Shown: positions 12,101-62,631 of the stretch, piece after piece
Layout of the letters: each line of letters begins with the position of its first letter
Numbering within the stretch: the stretch's first letter is position 1
Notes under the pieces: model-generated
The model's input: only the letters and a program-made list of their open reading frames with translations
Database searches by the model: none
What the model was told of the DNA's origin: nothing
Source: an uncultured bacterium
GTDB taxonomy: Bacteria > Patescibacteriota > Minisyncoccia > Moranbacterales > UBA2206
Reading direction: 5' to 3'
DNA length: 64,000 nucleotides
NCBI GenBank assembly: GCA_903831805.1
Contig: CAIKZD010000007.1
Span: forward strand, 7,886 to 71,885
Made by a program: the position numbers and the translations under genes

Positions 12101-13870
12101 GTCGGCAGCACCAATATTTACAATAATGTTATCTATGGTTTTGGTATAAACGGCGACGCCGGCGGCCCGGAAAAAGTCTACAACAACACGGTTAGTGGTA
12201 GTGCGGTGGGCATTTCCGGCACGGCCAATGATATTGCCAAAAATAACATCGTGCAAAATTGTGCCAATGGTTATTCCGGCACTTTCAACGCTGCTTCAGA
12301 CTACAACATTTCCGACCTGGCGGCTGACAACGCCGGTGGTGCCCATGACAAACAAGCCACGGTGGCTTTTGCGGATGCGACCAACAAGGATTTCCACCTT
12401 TCTCCGACCGACACGCAAGCCAAGGATGCCGGCGCAAACTTGAGCGCTGATTCCAACTTCGCCTTCACCACCGACATCGATTCTCAAACCAGAAATCAAA
12501 ACGGTCTCGGTTGGGACATCGGCGCGGACGAAGCGGCTACGCAGATTTTTTATAGTGTCGGACAAAATACTACCGATCACAAAACTGGTTCTCCGACCGT
12601 GACCGTTAGCGGTTCAACCGCTACATTTTCTGTGGCGCAGACTGCGACGAATATGGGCGTGGGGGATTTGGTGACCTACACTGGTGGCACATGTTACCTG
12701 AGCGCCAAAACCAACGCCGATCAGATGCATTGGAATTGTGTCAGTGCCACCGGTGGCACACCAACTGCAGCTTCGGCCGGCACAACCGTCACTTCCATCA
12801 CTCACGCCTTCGCTTCACTCGAAGGTGCAGTGGATGCCAACACTGCCACGGGTGCTTTTGACGCAACCCATCTAAACACGAAAGATTTAGTGACCAATAA
12901 TTATCAATTAAATATTCCTTGCTACTACGACACTGGTGCGGACACCACGGCGGTCACCGTGCAGTTTTGGACTACTGGGGCGCAGGATTATGTGAAAATT
13001 TATACGCCATACAACACGACAAGTGAAATTAATCAGACGCAGAGGCATAGCGGGAAGTGGGATGATGGGAAATATAGAATGGTTGTTCCAATGAATAATT
13101 TTTACAATGATATTATCTATTCGCAAATCAAGTTCGTCTGGATTGACGGATTGCAAATAGAAAAAGCGGAGGGAGTCGGATTTGACTCCGGAGGTATGTG
13201 GATCGAAAATAATTTTTCAGATGGGGGGGTGATCAGGATTTCCAATAATATTGTCAGAAATACCAACACCACAGGCACAATTATTTATGGAATTAGTGCC
13301 TTGGATTACTCATCTAATTTTGCGACGACATACTACGTCTGGAGCAATATTATTTATGGTTTTAACAATAGTGATAGCTATGGTATCTATTTGAATTATC
13401 TTTCAGTTGATACTGATTATGTTTACAATAATACAATTTATAATAATACAATCGGAATTAATAATGAGAATGGCGGTGGGACAGTTTTTGCCAAAAACAA
13501 TCTTGCCTATAACAACACCACGGACTATGCTGGTACATTCAATGCCTCTTCCACTAATAATCTTTCCAAAGACGCCACTTCGCCTAACGCCGGCGGAGCG
13601 GATTGTGGCGGGCACAGCTGCCGCAATCAAACCGTCAGCTTTGTTTCCACTACGACCGGTGCGGAAGACTTCCATCTTGCCCCATCGGACACCGCCGCCA
13701 AAAATTCCGGGGCGGATCTCTCAGCCGACGCTAATTTTCCTTTCAACACCGACATCGACGGCGAAACCCGCCACGCCGGCGTGTGGGACATTGGGGCGGA
13801 TGAGAACAATAGCATCAATGTGCAACTCAATCGGAATGTGCAGTTGAAGAGGAATGTGCAGATTAAATAG
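9131..13870 (+). CDS. Giant (1579 aa) secreted surface protein: IPT/TIG-like N-terminus, LamG domain, three ~400-aa tandem repeats with beta-helix-like segments
   Basis: Signal peptide. PVSGSPSGGTSVTISGSNF, then a LamG module. Repeat units start near 10130, 11336 and 12546 with ~85% nt identity between units 2 and 3. Recurring ...WDIGADE. Confidence 0.75.
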   Translation: MSKYHKLILIAFFIITGLSSASFVSAESAPTVSGINPVSGSPSGGTSVTISGSNFSIGLDSYTKLLLHSDGANNSTTFTDSASSPKTMTANGNAKISTAQSKFGGSSAVFDGNGDFVSTPDSADWDLGSGDFTIDYWIRYPATPNYTAVLGQWNGATSQKSWLLEHIGTAAMGFYYSTTGSDQSSVSFAWTPSVDTWYHCAMVRSGTNMLFFVNGTQVGTAQSIGAATFFNSSDQFQIGQQEANTGTSVNAYIDEVRVSKGIARWTANFTSPSVRYGTPAVTIGGTAATSVASTDGSTITAVTPAHALGAGNVVATNPDTQSATLTNGYTYFVSNVYYSVGQSAADLKTGTPNVAITSGVATFTVAQTGNIGVGDVIVANAISYYISSKTSTTVWNVVTNTGATPTNIGSTAVTSIKHVYTSLNSAVAGAATLLGNSDLTAANVALNIPCYYDSAADTTAVTVSGYTTDATRYIKIYTPSNTATESNNSQRAMGKWDAGKYSLVSSGTTTVQLNSAYIIFEGIQLKNTNATASADTAIIYTSLNNASSLLTINKNILVAQVSGVNTMYAFKDIYQTVKNVILSNNVFYNITGGSAEDRAIVMEGGNFYVYNNTVYNAEVGFKIVSTSTVVAKNNIVQGATDGYYGTFDAASDYNISNLSSDTTGGAHDKQATVNFVSTVSGLEDFHLSPADSAAKNSGADLSADANFAFSTDIDGASRNAAINAWDIGADETATEVYFSVGQNTSDHKTSTPTVTVSGTTATFSVAQTATNMGVGDLVTYIGGTCYLSAKTNADQMHWNCVSATGGQPAQVAGVSVTSIAHAFGALEGTVDANTGNGAFDASHLNTKNLVTGNYQLNVPCYYDTGADPNTLGVSVRGWTTGGQNSIKIYTPNNTTTEVNQTQRPAGKWDATKYNVAINHSAFALSMLTIRNDAVTVEGLQFYMISTAFEHDAIYAINPNASGAINIASNIIRAELSGTATGFAVISHTNNVGSTNIYNNVIYGFGINGDAGGPEKVYNNTVSGSAVGISGTANDIAKNNIVQNCANGYSGTFNAASDYNISDLAADNAGGAHDKQATVAFADATNKDFHLSPTDTQAKDAGANLSADSNFAFTTDIDSQTRNQNGLGWDIGADEAATQIFYSVGQNTTDHKTGSPTVTVSGSTATFSVAQTATNMGVGDLVTYTGGTCYLSAKTNADQMHWNCVSATGGTPTAASAGTTVTSITHAFASLEGAVDANTATGAFDATHLNTKDLVTNNYQLNIPCYYDTGADTTAVTVQFWTTGAQDYVKIYTPYNTTSEINQTQRHSGKWDDGKYRMVVPMNNFYNDIIYSQIKFVWIDGLQIEKAEGVGFDSGGMWIENNFSDGGVIRISNNIVRNTNTTGTIIYGISALDYSSNFATTYYVWSNIIYGFNNSDSYGIYLNYLSVDTDYVYNNTIYNNTIGINNENGGGTVFAKNNLAYNNTTDYAGTFNASSTNNLSKDATSPNAGGADCGGHSCRNQTVSFVSTTTGAEDFHLAPSDTAAKNSGADLSADANFPFNTDIDGETRHAGVWDIGADENNSINVQLNRNVQLKRNVQIK
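13803..13870 (+). repeat. 3' end of the giant gene (INVQLNRNVQLKRNVQIK*); a diverged duplicate lies at 15455..15510
   Basis: About 70% nt identity. The second copy translates VNVQINRNVQFKRGVTIK* and also ends in a stop. Confidence 0.6.
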
Positions 13871-14139
13871 TCTGAACCACCGATGCAGGTTCAAGTTCTC
13901 GATGCAGGTTCAGGTTTGTAACTTGGACCCTGGAGTTAACCATCGAAATGTTTAAACAAGAATTAAATTCAAAAAGCCCGTAAACTAAAAGAATCAGGTT
14001 ACAAACCTGCTCCTGCACGGAGGGGGTAAGAGAGAGGGAATATTGACGGGGATTGATAGATGTGATATATTTCCATTGTAATGGACAAATTACTAGATAA
14101 TTGTCCATTTAACTGGACAAATAATATAGTACTAAAATT

Positions 14140-15453
14140 ATGGATACCAAGGAAAATTTAAAGAAACTCATCACTGAATGGATGGAATTTGAGATTCCAA
14201 ACGATATTTTGATGCGCAAGTTTGACAGGCGCTTACTGGCCGGCAAAAAGATTTTAGCAATCATCGGACCGCGCCGCGCCGGAAAAACATATTATTGCTT
14301 CCAGATTATCAAAGAATTACTATTAGACATTCCGAAAGAAAATATTCTCTATATCAATTTTGAAGACGAGCGACTCTATCCTTTGGTGGGCGATGAGCTG
14401 ACCTTGTTATTGGAAAGTTACCTCGAATTGGTTACGCCTCAAAAAAACAAGAAAATATATTTTTTCCTGGATGAAGTTCAAAATATCAAGTTTTGGTCGA
14501 AATGGGCACGAAGAATAAGTGAAAAAAATCCGAATATCAAATTGATCCTGACAGGTTCATCTTCAAAGTTGCTCAGTCGGGAAATCGCTACCGAGCTCCG
14601 CGGCCGCTCACTTTCTTTTATGGTGTACCCCTTATCATTTGGGGAATTTTTAAAGTTCAAAAAAATAGATTTCGAATCTAAAACGATTTTGTATGGCAAA
14701 AAGCGCGGACAAATAAAAAAAGCGTTCAATGAATTCTTGGAGCAGGGCGGTTTCCCGGAAACTTTGTCTGAGACGCTCAAGCAAAAAGTTTTGCAAGAAT
14801 ACTATAGCACAATGTTTTATTCCGATATTGTCGAGCGCTACGATGTTAAGAACACTGCCTTGCTAGAGGATTTCTTAAAAATGGAAATAAACAGTTTTTC
14901 CTCGATGGCTTCAATTTCCAAGATGGAAAAAGTGCTATTGTCGATGAATAGGAAAGCCAGCAAAACTACTTTGTCCAAATATCTTTCCTATGCCAAGAGC
15001 GTTTTTCTTTTGTTTGAACTGAGTGTGTATGATTATAAATTAAAACAGCAGATGAGGCATCTGAAAAAAATATATGCCGTGGACACGGGGCTACTTAATG
15101 CGATTCGTTTTTCTTTTTCCGACGATTACGGCAGGCTCTTGGAAAATTTGGTCTTTTTGGAATTTTTAAAAGCAGGGAAAAAAGTTTTTTATTTCCGTGG
15201 TAATGGAGAATGTGATTTCTTACTTAAAGATGGCAAAAAAATTTCCGCCGCTTTTCAAGTCACGAAGAGCCTTAAAGATTATGACACTCGACAACGGGAA
15301 ATTAAAGGACTTTTGGAAGCCCTGGAGAAATATAAGCTTGATGAAGGAATTATATTGACTGAAGATGAAAATGAAGAATTTGAAGAAGCTGGCAAAAAAA
15401 TCAAGGTTTTGCCAGTGTGGTTTTGGGCATGTGGAATAGCGGGCAAAGATTAA
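14140..15453 (+). CDS. AAA+ ATPase of the COG1373 family (AAA_14 + DUF4143)
   Basis: Walker A GPRRAGKTY; Walker B FFLDEVQ; ...TGSSS...PLSFGEF... matches the family. Confidence 0.8.
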   Translation: MDTKENLKKLITEWMEFEIPNDILMRKFDRRLLAGKKILAIIGPRRAGKTYYCFQIIKELLLDIPKENILYINFEDERLYPLVGDELTLLLESYLELVTPQKNKKIYFFLDEVQNIKFWSKWARRISEKNPNIKLILTGSSSKLLSREIATELRGRSLSFMVYPLSFGEFLKFKKIDFESKTILYGKKRGQIKKAFNEFLEQGGFPETLSETLKQKVLQEYYSTMFYSDIVERYDVKNTALLEDFLKMEINSFSSMASISKMEKVLLSMNRKASKTTLSKYLSYAKSVFLLFELSVYDYKLKQQMRHLKKIYAVDTGLLNAIRFSFSDDYGRLLENLVFLEFLKAGKKVFYFRGNGECDFLLKDGKKISAAFQVTKSLKDYDTRQREIKGLLEALEKYKLDEGIILTEDENEEFEEAGKKIKVLPVWFWACGIAGKD

Positions 15454-15454
15454 G

Positions 15455-15510
15455 TCAATGTCCAGATCAACCGCAACGTGCAGTTCAAAAGGGGAGTGAC
15501 TATCAAATAA
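15455..15510 (+). repeat. Displaced or duplicated original 3' end of the giant surface-protein gene
   Basis: See 13803..13870. Confidence 0.55.
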
Positions 15511-15580
15511 AACGGTTTGACCCTTTTTTCAAAAACCTCTATAATTTAAAGCAAGTAAATATAAAATAATTAACACAAAT

Positions 15581-18220
15581 ATGGAACCGGAAAAACAACA
15601 ACCGTTTAATATTAACGTCAGAAAATCGATGGCTGATACGTCTAGTGTGTCCTCACCTCGCAGAGCCAGTCTGCAGGATGCCTATCAGTTAAGTCATGCG
15701 CAAAAATTCGAAGCGGAAATTGCTCCGGAGAAAAACAGCGAACAGAAAAATGAACAAAAATTAGTCATAAAGATTTTGGACAAACTGATCGGTCTCGCGA
15801 TTTTTATGCTTTTCTTCGGCTTGCCGCTTTTTTTCACCGGCTTCACCCAGCAAGGCATTATTTTTGATAAACAGATCTATTTCTATGTCTGGGTGCTTTT
15901 GGGCTTAGTTTTCTGGGTGACCAAAGGCGTGGTGGTGGGAGAAATGAACATCAAGCGGACGCCGTTGGATTGGCCGATCTTGGGATTTTGGTTGGCCTAT
16001 ATCGCCGCCACGGTTTTTTCCGTGGATCGTTGGCACAGTTTCTGGGGCGCTTATAGTGATCCATCGCTCGGTCTCATGAGTATCACGGCTTACATCATCG
16101 CGTATTATTTCCTGAACAGTAATTTAAACTTGAAGAGAATGAAATTGGTGATGATTGCGGTCATTTCGGCCGGGGCAATTACAATGATTTGGACGACACT
16201 CGCGATTTTTGGTTTGAAATTTCTGCCGGACACCATCGCCGCTTATTCTCCGCTCAGTTTGGTCGGGTCTATTACAGGCTTAGGGGTATTGTTCTCACTT
16301 TTGATTCCGATTATCACCACGGCTATTTTGCAAGTGGCTGATGCTAAAAATTTAAGCAAAGTCGTTAAGGGGATTCTGGAAACAGGCATGCTTTTCTTTC
16401 TGGTATTAGATATGTTTTTGGTCCTGGCTCTCTATAATTATATTCCGTGGGTTGGACTGTTCGTCGGAGTGGCTGTGTTTTTGATTTTTATCCTGGCCAA
16501 AATCGTACGCCCGAAAAGCACGTGGGTCTGGCTGCCGATGACCGTGTTTGTCTTGGTAATGGTATTGCGCCTGACTGGCAGCGTGCCGATTGCCAAAGTG
16601 CAATTGCCAATGGAAGTCAGTTTGAATTACAAAACTTCCGCGGACATCGCCTGGCAAAGTATGAAGAATAAATTTTTGGTCGGATCCGGTCCGGCGACCT
16701 ACAGCTATGACTTCTCTTTGAACCGGCCGCAGGATTTCAACGCTAATGCCCTCTACAGTTTGCGCTTCTATCAAGGTACGGGTATTTTGGCGGAAGTGAT
16801 TCCGACGGCTGGCATCGTGGGAGCCATTTTTCTCCTGCTCCTCATTTTGACCTACGTCGGCGCCCAATTCTATCTGCTGTATAAAGACAAGGAAAAAAAC
16901 AAATTATATTCTTTGGGGCTGGCCAGTGCGGCGGCGATTATGCTAGTAGATGTCATGAGTGTGCGGGCTGACGGCGGAATATTGGTCATGGGGGTACTCC
17001 TCGGCACCTTGGCTTTGGCCACCGGGATTCGCGAATCGGAAAACATCGAGCGAGAAATAAATCTTTCGCTTAAGGCTTCGCCTAAATTTGCCTTGGCTCT
17101 GGCTTTTGTCTTTATGGTGGTCAGCGCCGGTATCGCCTTCTTCTTCGTTTATCTTGGTAAGGTTTATGCCTCGGACATTTATGCTAAGCGTGCAGCAGCG
17201 CTAGTGGCCACTGATCCGGATAGGGCACTTAATGATTTGAGTCAGTCAGTCACGCTCAATCCGTTGGAATCCAAATATTATGTCCAATTGGGGCAATATT
17301 ACATGGCGTTGGCTAATCAGGAAGCGCTGAAGGATCAAAATTCCAGAGATATCAATAAGATCCAGCAATATTTGAACAATTCCATTGCGGTCACTAATCA
17401 AGCTAAAACCATTTCTCCCAATGATGTGGGCACGGTGGAATCGCTGGCCCTGATCTATGAAAACGCCGGTCTTTATGTGCCCAATTCTTTGAGTCTCGCG
17501 GTGGACAACTATAAGCGCTCGCAAGAACTGGAACCGCATAACCCGGTCTACTTTGTGAAACTCGGCCAATTGGATGTGGCCACAGCGGGGGCGGAAAAAG
17601 ATACGGCCAAGAAAAAACAATTGGTCAATGATGCTAAGGATCTATTCCAAAAATCAGTCGACGAAAAACAGAATTATCCGGAAGGCTACTACCAATTGGC
17701 TTTGGCTGATGAAGCGCTGAACGATTTGGACCACGCGGTGGAAAACGCGGTGAAGGCTGCGAACCTTTCACCGAAAAATGTGAACTACATTCTTTCCCTC
17801 GGCCGCATGTATGAAGAAAGGAATAAGAATGATGATTTGAAATCGGCGGAGCAGGTTTATCAAATAGCGATAAGCATAGATGACAAGAATGTTAATGGGC
17901 ATTTCTATCTGGGACTGCTGTATGAGAAAGAAAAAAACAAGGACGGTGCCAAAAAAGAATATGGCCGCGTAGTGGATCTGCTCAGTGCCAATAGTAATGG
18001 CAGTAACGCCGACACGATCGCTAAATTGAAAAAGATGATTGACAACGTGAATAATGGCGTAGTGAACACGGCCGAAAGCCTGGGGTTGACCCAGGACAAT
18101 CAACCGGCCCCGACTACTCCGACTGCGCCTGTAGCACCAACTACACCAACTACACCAACTACCCCCCCCACTGCTCCTACTGTTAAGCCAACTACTCCTC
18201 CAGTGACACCTACTCCGTAA
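15581..18220 (+). CDS. Polytopic membrane protein (O-antigen ligase/polymerase-like) with C-terminal TPR repeats and a Pro/Thr-rich tail
   Basis: At least 10 predicted TM helices; TPR-like repeats (YYVQLGQYYMAL..., YFVKLGQL..., HFYLGLLYEKEKN); tail PAPTTPTAPVAPTTPTTPTTPPTAPTVKPTTPPVTPTP. Confidence 0.5.
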   Translation: MEPEKQQPFNINVRKSMADTSSVSSPRRASLQDAYQLSHAQKFEAEIAPEKNSEQKNEQKLVIKILDKLIGLAIFMLFFGLPLFFTGFTQQGIIFDKQIYFYVWVLLGLVFWVTKGVVVGEMNIKRTPLDWPILGFWLAYIAATVFSVDRWHSFWGAYSDPSLGLMSITAYIIAYYFLNSNLNLKRMKLVMIAVISAGAITMIWTTLAIFGLKFLPDTIAAYSPLSLVGSITGLGVLFSLLIPIITTAILQVADAKNLSKVVKGILETGMLFFLVLDMFLVLALYNYIPWVGLFVGVAVFLIFILAKIVRPKSTWVWLPMTVFVLVMVLRLTGSVPIAKVQLPMEVSLNYKTSADIAWQSMKNKFLVGSGPATYSYDFSLNRPQDFNANALYSLRFYQGTGILAEVIPTAGIVGAIFLLLLILTYVGAQFYLLYKDKEKNKLYSLGLASAAAIMLVDVMSVRADGGILVMGVLLGTLALATGIRESENIEREINLSLKASPKFALALAFVFMVVSAGIAFFFVYLGKVYASDIYAKRAAALVATDPDRALNDLSQSVTLNPLESKYYVQLGQYYMALANQEALKDQNSRDINKIQQYLNNSIAVTNQAKTISPNDVGTVESLALIYENAGLYVPNSLSLAVDNYKRSQELEPHNPVYFVKLGQLDVATAGAEKDTAKKKQLVNDAKDLFQKSVDEKQNYPEGYYQLALADEALNDLDHAVENAVKAANLSPKNVNYILSLGRMYEERNKNDDLKSAEQVYQIAISIDDKNVNGHFYLGLLYEKEKNKDGAKKEYGRVVDLLSANSNGSNADTIAKLKKMIDNVNNGVVNTAESLGLTQDNQPAPTTPTAPVAPTTPTTPTTPPTAPTVKPTTPPVTPTP

Positions 18221-18285: not shown

Positions 18286-19504
18286 TAATAGCCCTTGACA
18301 TTATTTTCAGGCCTGCTATCATAGTAAAGCGTTAAGAAATTAGTATGTGATTCCTGGGGGATTGTGCCTAAGAAAAGGGGATAATTTCAAGGATGACTGA
18401 ATGATAAAATCAATCAAAAAACTAACTGAAAAAAGCGGGCTTGCCCCGCGATCGCGAAGTGATTTTGCGGGGTGAAACTTTTAGAAGTCTTTGAATTTGC
18501 TTCTAAAAAACTCCGCTCTAAAGCGGTTTTTAATTTGTGCGGAAATAGTCTTTCATAAAATGATTGTGAAAATTATTTTCCGCATCAAACGCACCTTAAC
18601 AATTAAATAGCTCTACTCAAATAAAAATCTTTTTGCATTCTGTGCGATTCGATTAAGTTTAGTGGAGCAAAGGTCTTAATCTGGATATTCAATGCCTACC
18701 GTTGGCGGGAATAGAATTGGATATTTATGATTAGTCATCTAATGTCGCGTAAGCAATGCGATATTAGATAAAAGTAGGTAAAAAAATTGCAATAATGAAA
18801 ACTGTCAGTTAAATAGAGTTAGTGATTTTAGTGATTGCTAACTGCTAACATTGACCCCGATGTAATGTCGGGGTGAAAAATTTAAGAGCGGTAGTACTAA
18901 TGCATATGGTGAATGCCTTGACACTAAAAAGCGATGAAGGACGTAGCTAGCTGCGATAAGCTTCGGGGAGGTGCTGAGCAACCTTTGATCCGGAGATTTC
19001 CGAATGGGGCAACCCCTCCGACTTTACGTCGGAGAACTTTAGCTGAATAAATAGGCTATTGTAGCGAACCCGGCGAACTGAAACATCTTATTAGCCGGAG
19101 GAAAAGACATCAACTGAGATTCCCCAAGTAGTGGCGAGCGAACGGGGAGAAGCCTAAACCATCAGTCGCAAGACCGGTGGGGTTGCGAGATAATTCTACT
19201 CGTTTAATCGGGGTAGGAAACTGTTTGTTAATAGAACGTCTCTGGAAAGAGCGGCCATAGAGAGTGAAAGCCTCGTATATGAAAACGAACAACGACTACG
19301 GAATTATTCTCAAGTAGGGCGGGACCGGAGAAATCCCGTCTGAATCTGGGGCCACTATTGCTCCAAGGCTAAATATTTTTAGTGATCGATAGCGAACGAG
19401 TACCGTGAGGGAAAGGTGAAAAGTATCCCGATGAGGGAGATGAAATAGTATCTGAAACCATATGCTAACGAAGAGTAGGAGCCGCATTCTTCACTGACGT
19501 TCAG

Positions 19505-19620
19505 AATGAATTTTTAATTTCCAATTTTTAATTTTTTAAATAAATCTTAATGTCTAAATTTTTAAACATTAAGAAATTTGAAATTATTTATAAAATTACA
19601 AAATTAAAAATTTAAAAATT
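19505..19620 (+). other. 23S intervening sequence at the helix-25 site
   Basis: A ~115-nt AT-rich insertion relative to the E. coli-type sequence at a known IVS site. Confidence 0.6.
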
Positions 19621-20277
19621 CGGAACGCGAGTGAAGAGTGTGGTGACTGCGTGCTTTTTGTAGAACGATCCAGCGAGTTAGTTTTGTGTCGTCCGGCTAA
19701 GCGACTTTGTCGCGGAGCCACAGTGAAAGCGAGCTTTAACCGGCGAACAACGATGGCACGAACTAGACCCGAAGCCAGGTGAGCTATTTATGAGCAGGGT
19801 GAATTTGCTGTAACAGGCAAAGGAGGCCCGAACCCACGCACCGTGCAACATGCGGGGATGACTTGTGAATAGAGGAGAAATTCCAATCGAACTTGGCGAT
19901 AGCTGGTTCTTCCCGAAATAGCTTGAGGGCTAGCGTTGGGACAACTATGTTTTGGAGGTAGAGCTACTGAATGAGGATTCGCGGTTCGCCGTAGGGTTCT
20001 CAACCAAACTCCGAATTCCAAAACAATTATCCCAGCAGTCAGAACTCCGGGGCTAAGCTCGGAGCTCAAAAGGGAAAAAGCCCATGACCGCCGTCTAAGG
20101 TCCCAAAATCTATGTTAAGTGGGAAAGGAGGTGAAGTTTCTTATACATCTAGGAGGTTGGCTCAGAAGCAGCCATCCTTTAAAGAGTGCGTAACAGCTCA
20201 CTAGTCTAGAGACTTTGCGCCGAAAATTCAACGGGGCTCAAACATAGTACCGAAGACGCGGATGCCGTACATAGTAC

Positions 20278-20402
20278 AGAATGTCAAAATCCCAATGCCA
20301 AATGTCAAATAAATTCCAAAATCCAAATGACAAAAATTCCAAATTAATTTGAAATTTAGTCATTTGACATTTATTTGAAATTTGAGCTTTGAAATTTGAA
20401 AT
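20278..20402 (+). other. 23S intervening sequence at the helix-45 site (imperfect long hairpin, no ORF)
   Basis: ATGTCAAAATCCCAATGCCAAATGTCAAATAAATTCC ... GTCATTTGACATTTATTTGAAATT forms an imperfect hairpin. It is homologous to the arms of the element at 8640..9120. Confidence 0.6.
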
Positions 20403-21128
20403 TCCGCACTGTGTGCGGCGTGGTAGGGAAGCGTTCCATACGCGCTGAAGCGGCATGCGTGAGCATCCGTGGAGTGTATGGAAGTGAGAATGCTGGAATT
20501 AGTAACCGCAATTGGAGTGAGAACCTCCGACACCGAAAGTCTAAGGTTTCCTGGGCAATGTCAATCATCTCAGGGTTAGTCGGTCCTAAGGCGAGGTCGA
20601 AAGGCGTAGTCGATGGACATAAGGTTAATATTCCTTAACTTCGGTATGATTCGATGGAGTGACGCATTTTAGTAGTTCTTGCCGATTATTGGATTTCGGT
20701 AGGGGTACTGAGGAAGTGAGACAGGCAAATCCGTTTCACAATATTCCAAGGTATTTCTGGAACTCGCCTCACCGGCGAGGAACAAGAATGAGCAGAGTGC
20801 CAAGAAAAGCTTCTAAGATTAGTCATATCGAAACCGTACTAAAACCGACACAGGTAGACTGGGCGAGTAGCCTAAGGTGAACGAGTGAACCTTCGTTAAG
20901 GAACTCGGCAAAACAGCGTCCGTAACTTAGGGATATGGACCGCCGACCGCAAGGTCGGCCGCAGCGAAAGATACCAAGCGACTGTTTACCAAAAACACAG
21001 GTCTCTGCAAACCCGTAAGGGGAAGTATAGGGGCTGACGCCTGACCAGTGCTGGAACGTTAACGGGAGAGGTGCAAGCCAATCCCCGAAGCGCCAGTGAA
21101 CGTCAGCGATAACTATAATCGTTCTAAG

Positions 21129-21913
21129 GTTCTGTAATTTTTTATAAAGATTACAGAAAGACTGGAACGATTATGGGGATGTAATGGTAAATAAACAGAA
21201 TAGTTAAAAAAGGAAAAATAACTGCCTAGTTGCGTAATTAATTACGTAATTGTCTTAAAACATTTAGCCGTATGCTGGGAACTCTGGTGAATCTGGAGCT
21301 ACTATGGTACAATTATTCCATAGATTATTTAATGGAAAAATATGCCAAGTAAAAAAGCTGCCAGTGCAGACAATCAGCAGGAAAGACTAAAAATGATTGG
21401 TTGGATAGTTGGTTATGTTGACGGAGAAGGATGTTTCTCGGTAAGTCTCTTTAGAAATAAAACTACAAAATTTGGGTGGCAAGTGTTTCCTGAATTTGTA
21501 GTTACGCAAGGCGAAAAAAGCAAGAAATCGCTTGAAATTTTGATAAAATTTTTCAAGTGTGGAAAAGTTTTCGTAAACAAAAGATATGACGATCATAACG
21601 AAAATGTTTATCGCTATTGTGTAAGGTCTAAAAAAGATTTAACTGAGATTATAATTCCATTCTTCAGAAATAATCAATTGAAAACGGCCAAGAAGGGAGA
21701 TTTTAAAATTTTTGCGAAAATCATTGAGATGATGAATGGAAATGTTCACTCAGAATTGAAAGGAGTAAAAAAAATTGCAAAAATGATTGAAAAAATGAAT
21801 CACAAAAAACCTTCTAAGTTTTTAGAATCCTCAGAGACTAAACGCTAGATTCGCCTTCTGGGCGAAAAATTATAGTCCGTTCTCTTGGGCGACCAAGAGT
21901 TAACACAAAAGAG
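21129..21913 (+). mobile_element. Group I intron in 23S at the position equivalent to E. coli 1917 (CTAAGGT|AGCGAAATTCC)
   Basis: The exon sequence stops at ...GTTCTAAGGT (21128) and resumes at AGCGAAATTCCTTGGCAGGTAAG (about 21914). The insert is ~785 nt and contains a homing-endonuclease ORF. Confidence 0.75.
21342..21848 (+). CDS. LAGLIDADG homing endonuclease (single-motif type)
   Basis: WIVGYVDGEGCFSV is the LAGLIDADG motif. The ORF lies inside the 23S intron. Confidence 0.85.
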   Translation: MPSKKAASADNQQERLKMIGWIVGYVDGEGCFSVSLFRNKTTKFGWQVFPEFVVTQGEKSKKSLEILIKFFKCGKVFVNKRYDDHNENVYRYCVRSKKDLTEIIIPFFRNNQLKTAKKGDFKIFAKIIEMMNGNVHSELKGVKKIAKMIEKMNHKKPSKFLESSETKR

Positions 21914-22519
21914 CGAAATTCCTTGGCAGGTAAGTTCTGTCCTGCATCAAAGGCGTAACGACTTGGTAACTGTCTTAACGAAGAGCTCGGTGAAATTGCA
22001 ATGACGGTAAAGATGCCGTCGACCTGCAGCAAGACGAAAAGACCCCGTGGAGCTTTACTACAACTTGGTATTGAATTTGAGATTATATTGCCTAGGATAG
22101 GTGGGAGACTTTGAAGCTTCGACTTCGGTCGAAGGGGAGTCAACCTTGTAATACCACCCTGTGTGATTTTAAATTCTAACCCTGGACTGTTATGAGTTTT
22201 TCTAAAACTTATGATAGAACTGGCAAAAAACAAAGTTGTGAAGTTATCAAAATCTAACAAAGTTTTTTGCGGTTCAAAATTATATCGTTTTGGTTATTCA
22301 TACCAGTCCGGGGACAGTGCCTGGTGGGTAGTTTGACTGGGGCGGTCTCCTCCTAAATGGCAACGGAGGAGTTTACAAAGGTCGGTTAGGTCCGGATGGA
22401 AATCGGATCGATAGTGCAAACGCATAAACCGGCTTTACTGCGAGACACATAAGTCAATCAGTCACGAAAGTGGAAGTTAGTGAACCGACTATCGCTTATA
22501 GGAGCGTAGAAGATCATCA

Positions 22520-22552
<33 letters not shown>

Positions 22553-22578
22553 CCTCCCAAGAGTTCACATCGACGGAG

Positions 22579-22638
<60 letters not shown>

Positions 22639-23342
22639 TGGCTGTTCGCCAATTAAAGCGGTACGCGAGCTGGGTTCAAACCGTCGTGAGACAGGTTGGT
22701 CTCCTATCTGCTGTAGGCGTTATTGCTTGAGAGGACTCTTTCCTAGTACGAGAGGACCGGAAAGAACGAACCTCTGGTGTACCAGCTGTTCCGCCAGGAG
22801 CATTGCTGGGTAGCTACGTTCGGACGGGATAACCGCTGAAAGCATATAAGCGGGAAGCCCACCTCAAGATTAGGCAATTCTTGATGCTTGCATCAAGATG
22901 ATTTCCTGGGAGATGACCAGGTTGATAGGTCTCAGGTCTAAGTGGAGTGATCCATTAAGCCGAGAGATACTAATAAATTAAACATTATCTCTCTTAAGTT
23001 TCGATTAGCGAATTGCCGCGAATGTTAACGCGAGTGTTTGCAAATTTATTTGCAATCTATTCGTTTTCTCATTCGCGAAACATTCGTGAGTCTGTTAGCA
23101 GTTAACAGTTTCTAAAAAAAACTGAAAAGCAATTTAACAAACTATCTCATATCAAGCGTTTTTAAGCGATTAAAGACGTTGCCATTTTTGTCTATGAGAA
23201 AATTAAAAAACAGTTTCAAGTTCATTTTGACAATTTTTACCCTCACGACTTTGACCCTGATTTTCTTTTTGTTTTTTTCTCCCATGATTAAAACTTTTTA
23301 GGATAATCAAAAATCAAATAACGTTAAAGATTTGAATGCAAA

Positions 23343-23461
23343 GTTCCCAGTGTTTCTAGCGGCGAGGAAACACCCGATCCCATTCCGAACTCGGAAGTTA
23401 AGCTTGCCAGCCCCGATGGTATCTGTCCTTGTGGCAGGAAGAGTAGGACAATGCTGGGAAC
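23343..23461 (+). rRNA. rrf: 5S rRNA
   Basis: Helix I pairs GTTCCCAG with CTGGGAAC. Internal CCGAACTCGGAAGTTAAGC and GATGGTA...GAGTAGG are 5S-like. It lies ~350 nt after the 23S 3' end. Confidence 0.8.
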
Positions 23462-23614: not shown

Positions 23615-23849
23615 GCTCTGCCTTTTTTGTGGATAATTTTGAATTAAAATGCTTTAAATCAGGCATTTTCGTCTCTTTACAAAAAGTTGATTCGGGTGTA
23701 TAATACTGGGTCGGTGTAAATTGTCCTTTAAAAACCCAATTTTGCAATTTGCCACAGCAGAAAGGATTTTTTTGAAGAATTCTTTCTGCTGTGGCGAAAC
23801 CGATTGGCCAAGTCCAACAGCGACAATCTATTTTATAGAGAGGTGTGCG

Positions 23850-24908
23850 ATGAAAAAAGTTGCGAGCCGACCAATAGAGGGAATAATTGAGTTTGTAAAA
23901 CAAATGGGAACAGTCCACGAGGCTGAGCGCATGATTATTGAGGCAGGGGGAATGAGTATATTCCAGTGGGCAATTACCGATCCGAACTTCCGTTATGATC
24001 TGGTGGCATTTGCCAATGACTATGTCCCAAGTGCGCTTAACTATGCAGCTCTACTCAAATGGTTTCAAGACAACAAGCTGGAAAGGTTTCTTTCCACCGG
24101 CAGTCTTGAAAAAAACATCAAGGAGCAGGAAATTTTTTATCAGAGATTTTATGGTAAAAGTTTCCGCATCGACCGCAAAAAGATTTTTGTCGATGCCTGG
24201 AGATTGCCAGCTATCAAGGTTGGACTGAAGGCGGGCAGTATAAACATCGCTTTGCTCAAAGCTACTCCGGAAATCCAGTCTGAGGTGGAAATACAAATGA
24301 CAGAAGTGGAATTTTTCTTCGATCGGATAATGAAACCGCTCAAAGAAAATAGCTTCAGAATCTGGGCGGAAGAGGGAGTTGACCGCTGGACCAACTTGAA
24401 ACTGGCAGAGTTTTTGCGCCGCTGCAGTCCGACGGAGCCGGAAGATTTTGATGCCGAAGCTTTCAAAAAAGATTGGGCGAAAGAAATAATTCGCATAATC
24501 AAAAAGAAAAGAGTGTTGCCGAATGTGACGACGGGCGCACTGGAAATAATTTTCACCAGCAACTTGGTGAATATCCCCAGTGACCAAATCATCGTCAATA
24601 AAAACGGCGAAATAGTTACTCCGGATGACCGCTCCTATGTTTCGGCCATAGCCAAAAACGTGAGAGTGCTTTCCAATGCAGAAGGGATTATTCTGGCGAG
24701 CCAGCTTTTCGCCAAGGATGGAACCTATCTGGCTCCCAATACTTGGGAATGGAGACGGGACTTGGTTGAGCATCAAGATAAAAAAACCAGCCCCTTTGCT
24801 TCAGTCGCGATCGTCGATTCTGGTGGCCACGAGTTCGGGCTCAGCTCCGCTGTGCTGACTGCTCCGATGGCGGCGGCCGTTTGCGTCTTGCCCTATAATT
24901 TCGGGTAG
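23850..24908 (+). CDS. DGR2 target protein with a C-terminal variable region
   Basis: The ORF track opens at 23721. I place the start at the internal Met MKKVASRPIEG (23850), which follows GAGAGG. The last ~36 codons are VR2. Confidence 0.6.
   Translation: MKKVASRPIEGIIEFVKQMGTVHEAERMIIEAGGMSIFQWAITDPNFRYDLVAFANDYVPSALNYAALLKWFQDNKLERFLSTGSLEKNIKEQEIFYQRFYGKSFRIDRKKIFVDAWRLPAIKVGLKAGSINIALLKATPEIQSEVEIQMTEVEFFFDRIMKPLKENSFRIWAEEGVDRWTNLKLAEFLRRCSPTEPEDFDAEAFKKDWAKEIIRIIKKKRVLPNVTTGALEIIFTSNLVNIPSDQIIVNKNGEIVTPDDRSYVSAIAKNVRVLSNAEGIILASQLFAKDGTYLAPNTWEWRRDLVEHQDKKTSPFASVAIVDSGGHEFGLSSAVLTAPMAAAVCVLPYNFG
24797..24906 (+). repeat. DGR2 variable repeat (VR2)
   Basis: Aligns with 25224..25333. 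About 20 substitutions, all at template adenines (VR mostly G), plus one 1-nt indel. Confidence 0.8.
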
Positions 24909-24974
24909 ATGCCGAAGGCGAGGATTTTGGATCTGTTTCCGCGAAGCGGAACAGGGAGTTTGGATAAAAAATTT

Positions 24975-25018
24975 CCAGATTTCAGCCCACGATGTAAATC
25001 ATCGTGGGCTTTTTTTAT
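24975..25018 (+). terminator. Rho-independent terminator after the DGR2 target gene
   Basis: CAGCCCACGATG-taaat-CATCGTGGGCTTTTTTTATT. Confidence 0.7.
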
Positions 25019-25223
25019 TGCAAAAAAATATGCTAAAATAAGCTTGAGCTCAGAGAGTGTTCGTACGCGACACTTTCCTCGTAACAAAACCCGAAGTTCA
25101 GCGCGTTTCCAGGGACGGAGAATAATGAAATTTATGCTAGCGTCCAAACAGAGGCTAAGATAATTGGCTATGAAAAGCGGAGCAATCTTCTTTTTGAAAT
25201 TATGGATGGAAACGGTGCTATAA

Positions 25224-25333
25224 TGCTTCAGTCGCAATCGTCAATTCTGATGACCACGAGTTCAAGCTCAACTCCAACAATGCTGACAACTCCAATGACA
25301 ACAACCGTTTGCGTCTTGCCCTAACACTTCGGG
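25224..25333 (+). repeat. DGR2 template repeat (TR2)
   Basis: Adenine-rich non-coding copy of VR2 (AAC/AAT-rich). Confidence 0.8.
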
Positions 25334-25716
25334 CCTTTTGTCTTTTTGAGCCAACCACCGATTTCTCTCCCGATGGAAACGATAGTTTCCAATTGGGAAG
25401 AATACCACCCAGTGGAAATGAATTTTTTGTCCACGGCCAGCCGCAGAGATTTTTTGAATAAATCAAAATTGGCGCTGGCCAGTGGCAGATAGATCTGGTT
25501 ATGAAGTGAAATCAGGGCAGCTTTATGCGTTTCGTTCAAAAAAAGCAAGATTTCTTTTCCCAAAAAATTTCTATCCATCTTGGGGAAATTTTGCACGCGA
25601 TCATAACAATTTCCGTATAATTTTTCTAATTCAGCAAATAATTTGGGCTGATTATTTTTATGAACGATATTCGTGGTAACGACTTCGCTGGGGGGGGGTC
25701 TTAGCGGGAATGCCAT
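25321..25716 (-). CDS. avd: Avd-like four-helix-bundle protein, paralog 2
   Basis: Same architecture as the 242..640 protein, including the C-terminal GREIGGWLKK versus QVGGWENWAK. It lies between TR2 and RT2. The start is probably an internal Met. Confidence 0.6.
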   Translation of the reverse strand: MAFPLRPPPSEVVTTNIVHKNNQPKLFAELEKLYGNCYDRVQNFPKMDRNFLGKEILLFLNETHKAALISLHNQIYLPLASANFDLFKKSLRLAVDKKFISTGWYSSQLETIVSIGREIGGWLKKTKGPKC

Positions 25717-26731
25717 TTGTCATAATGATATTTTTGAAAAAATTATTTCTTTAGAAAATTTGTTTTCAGCTTGGCAAGAATTTAGCAGGGGAAAGATGAA
25801 AAAGAAGGATGTCTTGGAATTTAAAATAAAATTGGAAGAAAATATTTTCCATCTCCATCAAACACTTAAAAACAAAACCTACCAGCATTCCCATTATACC
25901 GCATTTAACGTATATGACCCAAAACTGAGAAAAATTCATAAGGCCACGGTCATGGATAGAGTTTTGCATCATGCGATTTTTAGGATTTTATATCCACTTT
26001 TTGATCCAAGCTTTATTTGGGACTCCTATTCTTGCAGGATGGGAAAGGGTAGTCACCGAGCAGTCAAAAAATTGGAAAAATTCACAAGAAAAGCAAGTCA
26101 AAATAACAAAAGAAATATCTTTGCTTTGAAATGCGATATAAGAAAGTTTTTTGACTCTATTAACCAAGAAATTTTGCTGGAAATAATCCGAAGAAAAATA
26201 CAAGACAGAGATGCTTTATGGCTGATTGAAAAAATAATCCAAAGTTTCCCGGCAGGTTTGCCGCTGGGAAACGTCACCAGCCAAATTTTTGCCAACATCT
26301 ATTTGAATGAGCTGGATCAATTCGTGAAACATAATCTCAAAGAAAAATATTACCTGCGTTATTGCGATGATTTTATAATCTTGGGCGAAAGTGAAGAATG
26401 GCTGAAAAATATAATTCCAAAGATTGCTTGCTTCTTGCAGGAAAATCTACAGATCACGCTTCACCCGAATAAAATCAGTATCAGAAAATTCAGTCAAGGG
26501 ATAGATTTTTTGGGCTATGTGGTTTTGCCGCATCATAGAGTTTTGCGAACCAAGACCAAAAAAAGAATGATGAAAAAAATATCCCTGAAACAGAAAATGT
26601 ACCAGGAGGGTTTGGTTTCTGAGGAATCGCTCAATCAAAGCGTGCAATCGTATTTGGGAGTGCTGGAGCATTGTGAGGGGTGTGGGGTGGCGAGGGAGAT
26701 GGAAAGGACAATCGACAAGGCTAATGGATAA
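25673..26731 (+). CDS. DGR reverse transcriptase, paralog 2
   Basis: LGNVTSQIFANIYLNELD (SQ motif) and YYLRYCDDF (YxDD). ~55% identical to RT1 by eye. GTG start in the ORF track. A G9 homopolymer lies at 25689..25698. Confidence 0.85.
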   Translation: MVTTSLGGGLSGNAICHNDIFEKIISLENLFSAWQEFSRGKMKKKDVLEFKIKLEENIFHLHQTLKNKTYQHSHYTAFNVYDPKLRKIHKATVMDRVLHHAIFRILYPLFDPSFIWDSYSCRMGKGSHRAVKKLEKFTRKASQNNKRNIFALKCDIRKFFDSINQEILLEIIRRKIQDRDALWLIEKIIQSFPAGLPLGNVTSQIFANIYLNELDQFVKHNLKEKYYLRYCDDFIILGESEEWLKNIIPKIACFLQENLQITLHPNKISIRKFSQGIDFLGYVVLPHHRVLRTKTKKRMMKKISLKQKMYQEGLVSEESLNQSVQSYLGVLEHCEGCGVAREMERTIDKANG

Positions 26732-26880: not shown

Positions 26881-27555
26881 ATGCGGCAGGCCGAATTCGC
26901 TAATGGGGAATATTATCACATCTACAATCGTGGCGTGGATAAGCGCGAGGTGTTTTTGGATGAGGCGGATTATATTAGATTCTTGACCAGTATGCGTGAA
27001 TTCAATAGCATTTTAGATAGGGAAGAAAGACTAAGAAAATTGGAAAAGGAAAAATCGGAGTCCAACTCCGATTCGGAGTTGGACTCCGATTTTTCCGCCT
27101 CCACAGAACAAAAGTTGGTTGAAATTATTTGTTATTGCTTGAATCCGAATCATTACCATTTTATACTGAGGCAATTGCAGAAAAATGGCATCAGTAGATT
27201 TATGCAGAAAGTTGGAACTGGCTATACAAACTATTTTAATAAAAAACAAAATCGTTCCGGTGCACTCTTCCAAGGAAAATTCAAATCCATCCATATCGAC
27301 TCTAATGACTATCTGCTCTATCTGTCAGCCTACGTGAACGCTAATAATTTCATTCATGGATTTAATGAGAAGTTGGAAGATTGGGCATACTCAAGTTATC
27401 TGGACTATGCCGGACAGCGGGCAGGAAAGCTTTCCAAGAAAGAGGTTATATTGGGTCAATTTGATAATAATTTTTCGCAATATGCAAAATATATCAAAGA
27501 TAATGCGCTATACCTGAAGGAAAAAAAGGAAATGGCGAGCTATATTTTGGAATGA
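26881..27555 (+). CDS. REP-associated tyrosine transposase-like protein (IS200/IS605 Y1 HUH family), paralog 2
   Basis: YHIYNRG...YCLNPNHYHFIL...SGALFQGKFKSIHI...AYSSYLDY. ~70% identical to the 2441..3118 protein outside the variable loop. Confidence 0.65.
   Translation: MRQAEFANGEYYHIYNRGVDKREVFLDEADYIRFLTSMREFNSILDREERLRKLEKEKSESNSDSELDSDFSASTEQKLVEIICYCLNPNHYHFILRQLQKNGISRFMQKVGTGYTNYFNKKQNRSGALFQGKFKSIHIDSNDYLLYLSAYVNANNFIHGFNEKLEDWAYSSYLDYAGQRAGKLSKKEVILGQFDNNFSQYAKYIKDNALYLKEKKEMASYILE
27054..27090. repeat. Perfect 37-nt palindrome inside the RAYT2 CDS, related to family B
   Basis: ATCGGAGTCCAACTCCGA-t-TCGGAGTTGGACTCCGAT. It encodes the SESNSDSELDSDF segment, at the same protein position as the family-A palindrome in RAYT1. 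Confidence 0.8.
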
Positions 27556-61890: not shown

Positions 61891-62631
61891 TTACTTGCTA
61901 AGGAGTGTCATATACACCGTGTCCTCATCCTCGTTTTCGATATCTAGCATTTCATTGGTTCTTTGGTTATGAAAGCCCACGCTGTTGCAACACTTGATGC
62001 CAAGGGCGGAAGCGGTCAGGGCAAAATTGTGGTTCAGGTGGCCCGCCTCCAAAAGGGTGATGCGATAGCCGCGATTATCATATTTCATGAAATTTCTGTC
62101 CCAAACTGCCGTAGTGAAAAGCACCACTGCGGCCAGTCTTGACCAAGGATAGAACAATCCTTCTATGATCCCGCCCATATATTCAGGATCAATGGTCAAT
62201 GTCTCCAGGGCGTTGTCCTTAACGTTGAAATGATATATGCCGGGAATCATACCTTCGACACGTTGGATTACGGCGTATACTTCCAGTGGATAGCGCGCTC
62301 CGCCGGAAGGATAGAACCGGCGAACAGCTTCTCCTTCGACATCCGGAGTTCTTATGCCTGCCGAATAGGATAAAATAGTGGACAGTTCGTCGAAGGATAT
62401 TTTTTTTGTCCAATCAAACTCCCTCTCGGAATGGCGATTTTCCAAGCTGTTTTTTAACATTCCTAAATCTAATAAATTTTTGGACAGTTCTTTTTTGGGG
62501 AATCGCGGATAACTTTTGTGATAAATCTCTTCCCATTCTTTAGGCCAATATTGAGAATCGGTAGGCGGAGTGCCAATGGCAAAATCAAAGTTAGCTTTTT
62601 TATGGAATTTTTTAGAAAATATGCCTTTCAT
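61891..62631 (-). CDS. SagB-type (TOMM/McbC-like) nitroreductase-family dehydrogenase
   Basis: RHSEREF, RRFYPSGGARYPLEVY and PGIYHF match the SagB/ThcOx family. Confidence 0.65.
   Translation of the reverse strand: MKGIFSKKFHKKANFDFAIGTPPTDSQYWPKEWEEIYHKSYPRFPKKELSKNLLDLGMLKNSLENRHSEREFDWTKKISFDELSTILSYSAGIRTPDVEGEAVRRFYPSGGARYPLEVYAVIQRVEGMIPGIYHFNVKDNALETLTIDPEYMGGIIEGLFYPWSRLAAVVLFTTAVWDRNFMKYDNRGYRITLLEAGHLNHNFALTASALGIKCCNSVGFHNQRTNEMLDIENEDEDTVYMTLLSK

Follow-up and report, generated by a model that had tools for sequence, protein, structure and literature searches.

A stretch of 64,000 nt from an uncultured bacterium of the Moranbacterales (Patescibacteriota; contig CAIKZD010000007.1, positions 7,886 to 71,885), referred to here as the window, was analyzed around a gene end that is present twice. 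A giant gene for a surface protein is followed by a gene for an ATPase, and the ATPase gene is followed by a conserved TPR-repeat gene, after which comes the 23S rRNA gene. The last 18 codons of the giant gene and a stop codon recur between the ATPase gene and the TPR gene. The working 3' end of the giant gene is called copy 1, and its recurrence is called copy 2. Stranded fragments of gene ends such as copy 2 are called relics, and the genes found beside them are called cargo. The coordinates of the features are given in Table 1.

Table 1. Features of the interval between the giant gene and the TPR gene (positions in the window).
Feature	Position	Strand	Basis
Giant surface-protein gene, 1579 aa	9131..13870	+	ORF (open reading frame) list; Pfam TIG and Laminin_G_3
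Copy 1, allele class A, three 18-nt units	13814..13870	+	Closest to functional tail of L039
Conserved post-stop junction, TCTGAACCAC(C/T)GAT	13871..13897	+	Alignment with relatives
Long imperfect hairpin, 125 nt	13898..14022	+	Repeat search; RNA fold
ATPase promoter (TTGACG, 17 nt, TG-TATATT) and palindromic operator-like repeat ATGGACAAAT..ATTGTCCATTTAACTGGACAAAT	14043..14123	+	Promoter scan; inverted repeat I2
Cargo ATPase gene, AAA_14 and DUF4143, COG1373, PADLOC candidate PDC-S01	14140..15453	+	Pfam; PADLOC; alignment
Copy 2, probable displaced relic of a class-B giant-gene 3' end	15454..15510	+	Closest to functional tail of L009
TPR gene promoter (TTGACC, 17 nt, TATAAT)	15517..15545	+	Promoter scan
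Conserved TPR-repeat gene, right-hand synteny anchor	15581..18220	+	Pfam

Copy 1 consists of INVQLNRNVQLKRNVQIK and the stop codon TAG, and copy 2 consists of VNVQINRNVQFKRGVTIK and TAA. Copy 2 begins at the base after the ATPase stop codon (TAA, 15451–15453) and shares the frame of the ATPase gene. The two copies agree at 13/18 residues with their stop codons in register, and at 40/57 nt in an ungapped alignment that includes the stop; they are separated by 7 synonymous and 5 non-synonymous codon differences. The local DNA alignment score of the pair was 36, compared with 20.4 ± 2.3 and a maximum of 30 in 300 shuffles. When the 64-kb window was scanned in all six frames with a 19-position query, copy 2 matched at 14/19 positions and the best unrelated position at 7/19; three matches of 9/19 were register shifts of the 6-residue periodicity of the tail. 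An independent repeat search listed the pair as D1 (13815–13869/15455–15509, 73%). The original prediction that the last 18 codons recur after the ATPase gene was correct, and the shuffle control confirmed that the copies are related. Its coordinates had to be shifted: the start given as 13803 was 11 nt early, and 15455 became 15454.

A pairwise table of all tails was prepared, in which the 54-nt comparisons exclude the stop codon. Copy 1 was closest to the working tail of the giant gene in the related locus L039 (49/54 nt, 16/18 aa). Copy 2 agreed with the working tail of L009 at 17/18 aa, with 9 synonymous and 1 non-synonymous codon differences, and with a relic in L014 (f1, described below) at 45/54 nt. 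Copy 1 and copy 2 agreed with each other at just 38/54 nt. By these comparisons, the copies are two alleles, copy 1 of class A and copy 2 of class B, and copy 1 appears to have come from another lineage. Since the amino acids were kept through nine synonymous changes, copy 2 was probably a functioning gene end until recently.

The giant protein has a signal-peptide-like N-terminus and three modules of ~400 aa, each with WDIGADE at its end. In L009, L011, and L039, this position is taken by orthologues of 1293–3280 aa. The basic periodic C-terminal tail is also found in distant homologues, with P0002 ending in ..LTVEIKRGVNFKPGAKFK and P0003 in ..ARVKFRGTNFRIQGKVRIE, and the tail appears to be a selected protein feature. 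A degenerate tail pattern gave 23 matches in genome contigs; these came from genomes of scattered taxonomy with no apparent relationship (including L030, an unclassified metagenome-assembled genome) and looked like chance matches. A longer tail pattern returned only 3 metagenome contigs, so the tail allele family is rare in that collection.

The orthologous interval was compared in related loci, which were fetched through TPR orthologues of 69–78% identity. A total of 582 homologues of the TPR gene were found, several of them named Candidatus Moranbacteria or Patescibacteria. The TTGACCC..TATAAT block of the TPR promoter is kept in L009 and L011–L015, and in the window its −35 box lies 6 nt past the stop codon of copy 2. 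In L011 (TPR gene 71% identical), the giant gene ends in NINVQINRNVNFGRNVNIK and a stop codon, and the TPR gene follows 155 bp on; this site is empty. In L009/L010 (75%), the giant gene ends in VNVQINRNVQMKRGVTIK and a stop codon, followed by the TCTGAACCAC.. junction, a hairpin homologue, a Bro-N gene, and the TPR gene. L014 (74%) carries an array of three cargo genes: ATPase A1, then VWDIGADENNNVNVQINRNVQFKRGVQIK with a stop codon and TCAGAACCAC.. (relic f1), RhuM, then F(L)PFSTDIDGEPRHADKWDIGADENNNVNVQINRNVQIK with a stop codon (f2), ATPase A2, and then DENINVQLNRNVQLKRGVTV (f3), which is fused to the TPR promoter. In L039, a giant gene of 3280 aa ends in VNVQFNRNVQLKRNVQIK and a stop codon, and the same post-stop junction and a GxxExxY-type gene follow. 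L039 and L014 are probably adjoining contigs, as they share a sample and carry compatible halves of the GxxExxY-type gene. In L013 and L015 (78%), the upstream gene differs; an A2-type ATPase is present in L013, no ATPase is present in L015, and no tail copy was found in either.

The left boundaries of the three L014 relics differ. The relics comprise about 17, 29, and 39 codons, and each reaches the natural gene end; f1 runs on into the natural 3' untranslated region (UTR). Relics start 0–18 nt past a cargo stop codon, at varied positions within the last ~40 codons of the giant gene. Two of four relics share the frame of the cargo stop before them, which is uninformative. Decay of the L014 relics grows with distance from the giant gene: f1 is intact, f2 is shorter by one 18-nt unit, and f3 no longer has a stop codon. 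This gradient fits new insertions entering beside the gene. The alignment of 15455–15627 in the window with 4312–4486 in L014, from relic f3 through the TPR start, is unbroken, which suggests that the tail and the TPR gene were ancestrally adjacent. From these comparisons, the interval between the giant gene and the TPR gene is a strain-variable slot in which gene-end fragments accumulate. The original prediction had proposed a cassette insertion. An insertion-type polymorphism is indeed present, with an empty site in L011, Bro-N in L009, and three cargo genes in L014, and the arrangement is not kept by all relatives; the ATPase may have been either the incoming or the resident DNA.

The sequence behind copy 1 was also compared. 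The post-stop junction follows the stop codon of the giant gene in L009 and L039, and it follows relic f1 in L014. The hairpin behind it contains the exact 12-mer CAGGTTTGTAAC at 13911–13922 and its reverse complement at 13998–14009; the 12-mer was found nowhere else in the window. Its 43-nt arms (13898–13940/13980–14022) are 72% complementary, and the RNA fold has −49.4 kcal/mol with z = −3.0. No Rfam family was found for the hairpin in 13700–15700 at E ≤ 10, and Rfam at the gathering score identified only the 23S and 5S rRNA genes in the whole window. A hairpin homologue lies at 8794–8894 of L009, 5' of the Bro-N gene. No hairpin was found upstream of the ATPase homologues in L042, L044, and L046. 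Since it is common to L009, where the cargo is Bro-N, and does not accompany the same ATPase in four other contexts, the hairpin is placed outside the ATPase unit and belongs to the 3' UTR allele of the giant gene. The inverted repeat that had been described inside the block is real, but it is not part of an ATPase cassette.

The junction also takes part in smaller repeats in the relatives. In L039 (14010–14240) and L014 (83–131 and 1530–1660), the post-stop junction GTC(A/T)GAACCACTGATT.. is one arm of inverted repeats of ~27 nt. If the L039 and L014 contigs adjoin, these repeats appear to flank the GxxExxY-type gene. A segment of ~100 nt without an ORF is also bordered by them in L014, and in L039 the junction motif is directly duplicated around a 150-nt insert. 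The junction repeats resemble a small element with hairpin boundaries that is attached to the giant gene at its stop codon.

The ATPase between the copies had been assigned to COG1373, and this assignment was confirmed by Pfam, with AAA_14 (PF13173, 6.8e-38, residues 36–171) and DUF4143 (PF13635, 3.4e-19, residues 228–371). The motifs are intact: Walker A (GPRRAGKT), Walker B (FFLDEVQ), and a nuclease-like D..(Q/E)xK. In the DUF4143 alignment, E335, E357, and D359 are invariant, and a (Q/E)-V-x-K motif was found. The PD-(D/E)XK superfamily includes DUF4143 (PMC3424549). The PADLOC profile of PDC-S01 (PDLC04787) matched residues 31–431 at 1.3e-112, covering profile positions 22–407 of 412. L014 A1 and A2 were also matched as PDC-S01, Bro-N as PDC-S13, and RhuM as PDC-S05; none of the ATPase, the giant protein, Bro-N, and RhuM received a name from NCBIfam. 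PDC-S01 is a putative candidate in which an ATPase is fused to a PD-(D/E)XK domain, and most candidates of this kind still await experimental validation (PMC12988326). The cargo genes are accordingly treated here as candidate phage-defence genes.

ATPase homologues of 76–85% identity occupy unrelated contexts, and the limits of the ATPase unit could be read from them. Homology across contexts extends from about the −35 box, through the operator-like palindrome, to the stop codon, and the promoter and the operator-like repeat are conserved with the ATPase in L042, L044, L046, and L048. No terminal repeats were found at the ends of the conserved unit in the cross-context alignments. The C-terminus of the window ATPase has three codons more than its closest homologues, which places the joint at, or a few bases from, the native stop; it appears to be the native end with about 3 added codons. 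Homology of this C-terminus (VWFWACGIAGKD) to VWDIGADENNS of the giant gene was considered and rejected, since close ATPase homologues end in ...VWYWALGLK. An identical ATPase is present on 14 contigs from several samples, and the arrangement is the same in every context shown. The three ATPase lineages found at the slot (window, L013, and L014) are just 27–38% identical to each other, indicating that they were acquired independently.

The same architecture was found at other loci. In L044/L045, three ATPases stand in tandem, and behind each lies a piece of a dockerin-like gene end (...DALLILRYSLGLSM... with a stop codon); one further such piece precedes the first ATPase; in L012, an intact gene with the dockerin-like end lies directly upstream of the TPR orthologue. 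In the Parcubacteria contig L046 (4930–8000), an ABC-transporter operon is interrupted by an HTH-PemK unit and an ATPase-126aa unit. A copy of the first ~25–30 codons of the ABC ATPase gene stands before each unit (90–93% nt identity), and the first of these 5'-end copies is fused in frame to the HTH gene. In L042, a signal-peptide fragment of the neighbouring surface-protein gene follows the ATPase. In L047, the M48 peptidase gene ends in THPPISERVKRLRDMDV and a stop codon; after ~50 nt comes a GC-rich relic, AHPPIAERVKRLRGMDV with a stop codon (14/17 aa, 33/54 nt), and there is no cargo between them. In L048, the ATPase lies cleanly between the pyruvate kinase and PPDK genes without a relic. 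The original prediction called for a search for the same ATPase in other places with the same flanks. Relics do flank it in L044, L046, and L042, but they are relics of other genes, and L048 has none. The duplicated sequences are unrelated between loci, so the loci have no recombination site in common. The common factor is the terminus of the adjacent gene.

From these results, we infer a mechanism and a polarity of recombination. Copy 2 is rather likely to be the 3' end of the old allele, displaced downstream by one-sided homologous recombination with DNA from a related strain. The resident giant gene would originally have had a class-B 3' end, and the incoming DNA would have carried a diverged class-A 3' end and the hairpin-bearing UTR. 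The first crossover would have been homologous, within the long conserved giant gene. The second joint would have been illegitimate, formed where the ATPase gene stops, just upstream of the resident tail. Such a process would be homology-facilitated illegitimate recombination, plausibly following DNA uptake. It would leave the gene with a complete in-frame tail and the old tail stranded beside the TPR promoter. The slot in this genome holds one self-contained unit with its own promoter, a palindromic operator, and the PDC-S01 ATPase-nuclease gene. Repetition would give (cargo + relic)n arrays with the newest unit adjoining the gene. Entry beside the gene is favoured because of the decay gradient in L014, the unbroken relic–TPR junction, and the 6-nt gap to the −35 box. 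The same model was proposed for immunity arrays of type VI secretion systems (T6SS) (PMC5361080), and natural competence was demonstrated in Saccharibacteria, another lineage of Patescibacteria (PMC10633639). The gene-end-directed recombination suggested in the original prediction is thus close to this reading and is essentially supported.

Several points weigh against displacement by one-sided recombination. No donor and recipient pair close enough for reading microhomology at the junction was found, and the junctions of L013 and L014 at the A2 cassette were too diverged for this purpose. The joints are concentrated no more than about 120 nt from the gene end and 0–18 nt from cargo stops. This is tighter than random joining predicts, and selection for compactness or a more specific mechanism is needed. 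The polarity could also be the reverse: an incoming relic–TPR piece placed behind a resident ATPase and anchored in the TPR gene would give an identical map. The decay gradient is known from one array, L014, and the linking of L039 and L014 into one genome is an assumption, as no overlap between the contigs was found. Cargo without a recognisable relic occurs in three contexts (L009, L013, and L048). About a dozen loci were examined, all reached via two query proteins, and they establish no frequency.

Other explanations for the two copies were considered. A variant of the displacement explanation takes the conserved C-terminal tail as a portable recombination site: a circle of tail, UTR, and cargo would be excised between two tail copies and reinserted by a single crossover at a similar tail. 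A C-terminal displacement model invoking such an intermediate was proposed by Jackson et al. for the orphan tips of Rhs (PMC2935791). Direct repeats do bracket the cassettes, and relic f3 of L014 is hybrid-like, its first 39 nt being 92% identical to copy 1 (class A) and its end resembling class B; this mosaic is equally explicable as a third allele. Tails of 57 nt at 70% identity are a poor RecA substrate, and the differing left boundaries of the relics require a separate origin for each circle, so this variant is rather unlikely. It is decidedly unlikely that PDC-S01 mobilises itself, as a selfish gene running from promoter to stop whose PD-(D/E)XK domain cuts near gene ends and whose repair duplicates them. 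The sharp promoter-to-stop limits of homologues in unrelated contexts, the relics flanking the ATPases of the window, L042, L044, and L046, the up to three tandem copies in L044, the three ATPase lineages at the slot, and the place of DUF4143 in the PD-(D/E)XK superfamily (PMC3424549) are in its favour. However, a relic also follows RhuM in L014, the L047 relic has no cargo before it, and the ATPases of L048 and L013 lack a duplication. Self-insertion into a resident gene also does not predict copies of different alleles, and no report of cleavage or homing by the PDC-S01/COG1373 family was found in the literature examined. Site-specific integration at the gene 3' end by a trans-acting recombinase, with an element that brings a replacement gene end, would account for the functional 3' end supplied by the incoming DNA, the tandem accretion in L014 and L044, and the conserved post-stop junction TCNGAACCACYGAT. 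It is quite improbable, as no integrase was found within the block, adjacent to it, or among those window ORFs that were scanned, the relic boundaries vary, and the hairpin does not accompany the ATPase. The host-gene ends (NVQ tail, dockerin-like tail, ABC 5' end, and M48 end) are unrelated in sequence, so there is no common att-like core.

The remaining explanations derive copy 2 from the resident DNA. Copy 2 could be all that is left of a second giant-gene paralogue in tandem, the rest of which was deleted, given that several neighbouring genes are paralogous surface proteins and that distant family members have the tail motif. This is very improbable: four deletions would be needed (one in the window and three in L014), each stopping 17–39 codons before the stop codon and right after a cargo stop, and two full-length genes in tandem are not seen at this position in any relative. 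A transposition-like insertion with a target-site duplication formed in situ would explain direct repeats around a single-gene insert, and the original prediction had likewise considered a long target duplication that has since diverged. That proposal did not hold, since each copy is nearer to a working tail of another genome than to its partner. The frame of copy 2 is open and looks selected, the relic lengths vary, and neither terminal inverted repeats nor a transposase is present. In addition, the L011 site is empty although the divergence between the copies (30% nt) equals the divergence between these genomes. A duplication in situ is thus extremely improbable. The window contains two diversity-generating retroelements (DGRs), each with a diverged copy of the 3' end of its target gene nearby, which raised the question of whether the copies are a template repeat and a variable repeat. 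Mismatches fall on template adenines at 5/17 in the copy pair in either orientation, compared with 13/13 and 19/21 at the real DGRs, and no reverse transcriptase or Avd gene lies between or beside the copies. A DGR origin was refuted by the adenine test and retains practically no probability.

Displacement by one-sided recombination was compared with known systems. Rhs C-terminal displacement with orphan rhs tips (Jackson et al. 2009, PMC2935791) and orphan cdiA-CT/cdiI modules (PMC3150448) also show a full-length gene followed by stranded 3' fragments that keep a conserved region. The fragments come from other alleles, and new ends enter beside the gene while older ones are pushed downstream. 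The corresponding features were found here: an intact gene with stranded fragments (copy 2 in the window, f1–f3 in L014, and L044) and differing alleles (the tail table and the GC-rich M48 relic in L047). In Rhs and CdiA, what is displaced is a polymorphic toxin domain together with the immunity gene cognate to it, whereas here it is a conserved 18-residue tail, and no toxin domain with a cognate immunity gene was found. The cargo here (ATPase, Bro-N, and RhuM) consists of unrelated stand-alone defence candidates with their own promoters, beside a Patescibacteria surface-protein gene. The T6SS effector-immunity arrays of Vibrio cholerae (Kirchberger et al. 2017, PMC5361080) share the proposed mechanism, in which the upstream anchor is homologous and the downstream joint illegitimate, and their members can follow remnants of the 3' end of a displaced gene. 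Unlike in V. cholerae, the cargo here does not consist of immunity genes for the upstream protein, and there is no toxin. Compared with PDC-S01/COG1373, the window ATPase is alike in both Pfam domains and in the full-length model match, and its domain architecture shows no difference.

Integrating elements and cassettes share part of this pattern. Phage 21 and e14, which integrate into the icd 3' end and bring along a substitute gene end, code for an integrase and use a fixed att core. Their insert supplies diverged, mostly synonymous last codons, and on its far side the original end persists as a pseudo-fragment. Here the insert comprises one gene, the boundaries are variable, and an integrase was not found. 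Integron gene cassettes are likewise promoter-proximal tandem single-gene units with a repeat element after each. In contrast to integrons, no IntI, attI, or attC-like conserved structure was found here, and the repeats are fragments of the neighbouring coding sequence that differ by locus. Pfam detected no recombinase domain in the block or in the 25 window ORFs scanned, which are part of the ORFs of the window, and no constant att or attC core was seen. The marks of a transposon (a transposase, terminal repeats, and an identical duplication of fixed length) were also not found. In summary, the defence-candidate gene in this variable slot is accompanied by what is probably a 3'-end displacement relic, a variant of the displacement already known from Rhs and T6SS.

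Patescibacteria have tiny genomes with few recognisable mobile elements, and the gain and swapping of their accessory genes are little understood. The results suggest that one-sided recombination with related-strain DNA is a regular route of gene gain in Patescibacteria. Its footprint is repeatable: defence-candidate genes stand beside stranded foreign-allele copies of the last or first codons of a neighbour. Relics could mark recent acquisitions and variable slots in metagenome-assembled genomes, and relics within arrays could help to date the order of acquisitions. PDC-S01, which is reported among the commonest yet unvalidated defence candidates, is now placed in a context for tracking its gain and loss between close strains. 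A further conceivable, though clearly unlikely, idea is that the conserved termini of surface-protein genes and of other genes act as portable recombination sites of an integrase-free cassette system in Patescibacteria that captures, stacks and exchanges single defence genes, above all PDC-S01, whose ATPase-nuclease might promote the events. If true, this would amount to a mobile gene or cassette platform of a new kind and to more than the scars that illegitimate recombination occasionally leaves.

Other features of the window were also recorded. A complete DGR occupies 1–2258, with a variable repeat at the 3' end of a partial target gene (88–235), bAvd (284–640), a template repeat (996–1143), and a reverse transcriptase gene (1164–2258, −); 13/13 mismatches are on template adenines. 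The second DGR (23721–26731) has a target gene (23721–24908), a variable repeat (24797–24905), a template repeat (25224–25333), bAvd (25321–25716, −), and a reverse transcriptase gene (25673–26731), with 19/21 mismatches on template adenines. The 23S rRNA gene (18887–22994) is 4.1 kb long and contains a LAGLIDADG ORF (21342–21848), presumably in an intron, and the 5S rRNA gene lies at 23346–23459. A gene of the 23S-rRNA-intervening-sequence-protein family (8610–9056) is located a short way upstream of the giant gene, where it overlaps inverted repeats (8648–8695/9077–9119). The ~48-nt sequence of these repeats also occurs in both orientations within the 23S rRNA gene (20280–20334), like the stem of an empty intervening sequence.

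Two paralogous genes for IS200-like Y1 transposases (RAYT-like) are located at 2441–3118 and 26881–27555 and are 72% identical over 412 nt; in L011, an orthologue lies just downstream of the TPR gene. At 4071–7911, a 148-aa ORF without a family match (5543–5989) lies between two Laminin_G_3 genes. The upstream gene ends inside an apparent Laminin G domain (..EFDGDDYVSLPDFSY and a stop codon), which may be another case of a gene broken by the insertion of a small one. A palindromic, AT-rich element (about 120 nt) occurs twice, at 7906–8031 and 19500–19620, with 80–84% identity in both orientations. A YcaO cyclodehydratase gene (62651–63958, −) adjoins a nitroreductase-family gene (61891–62631, −), and the two may form a small peptide-modification cluster.

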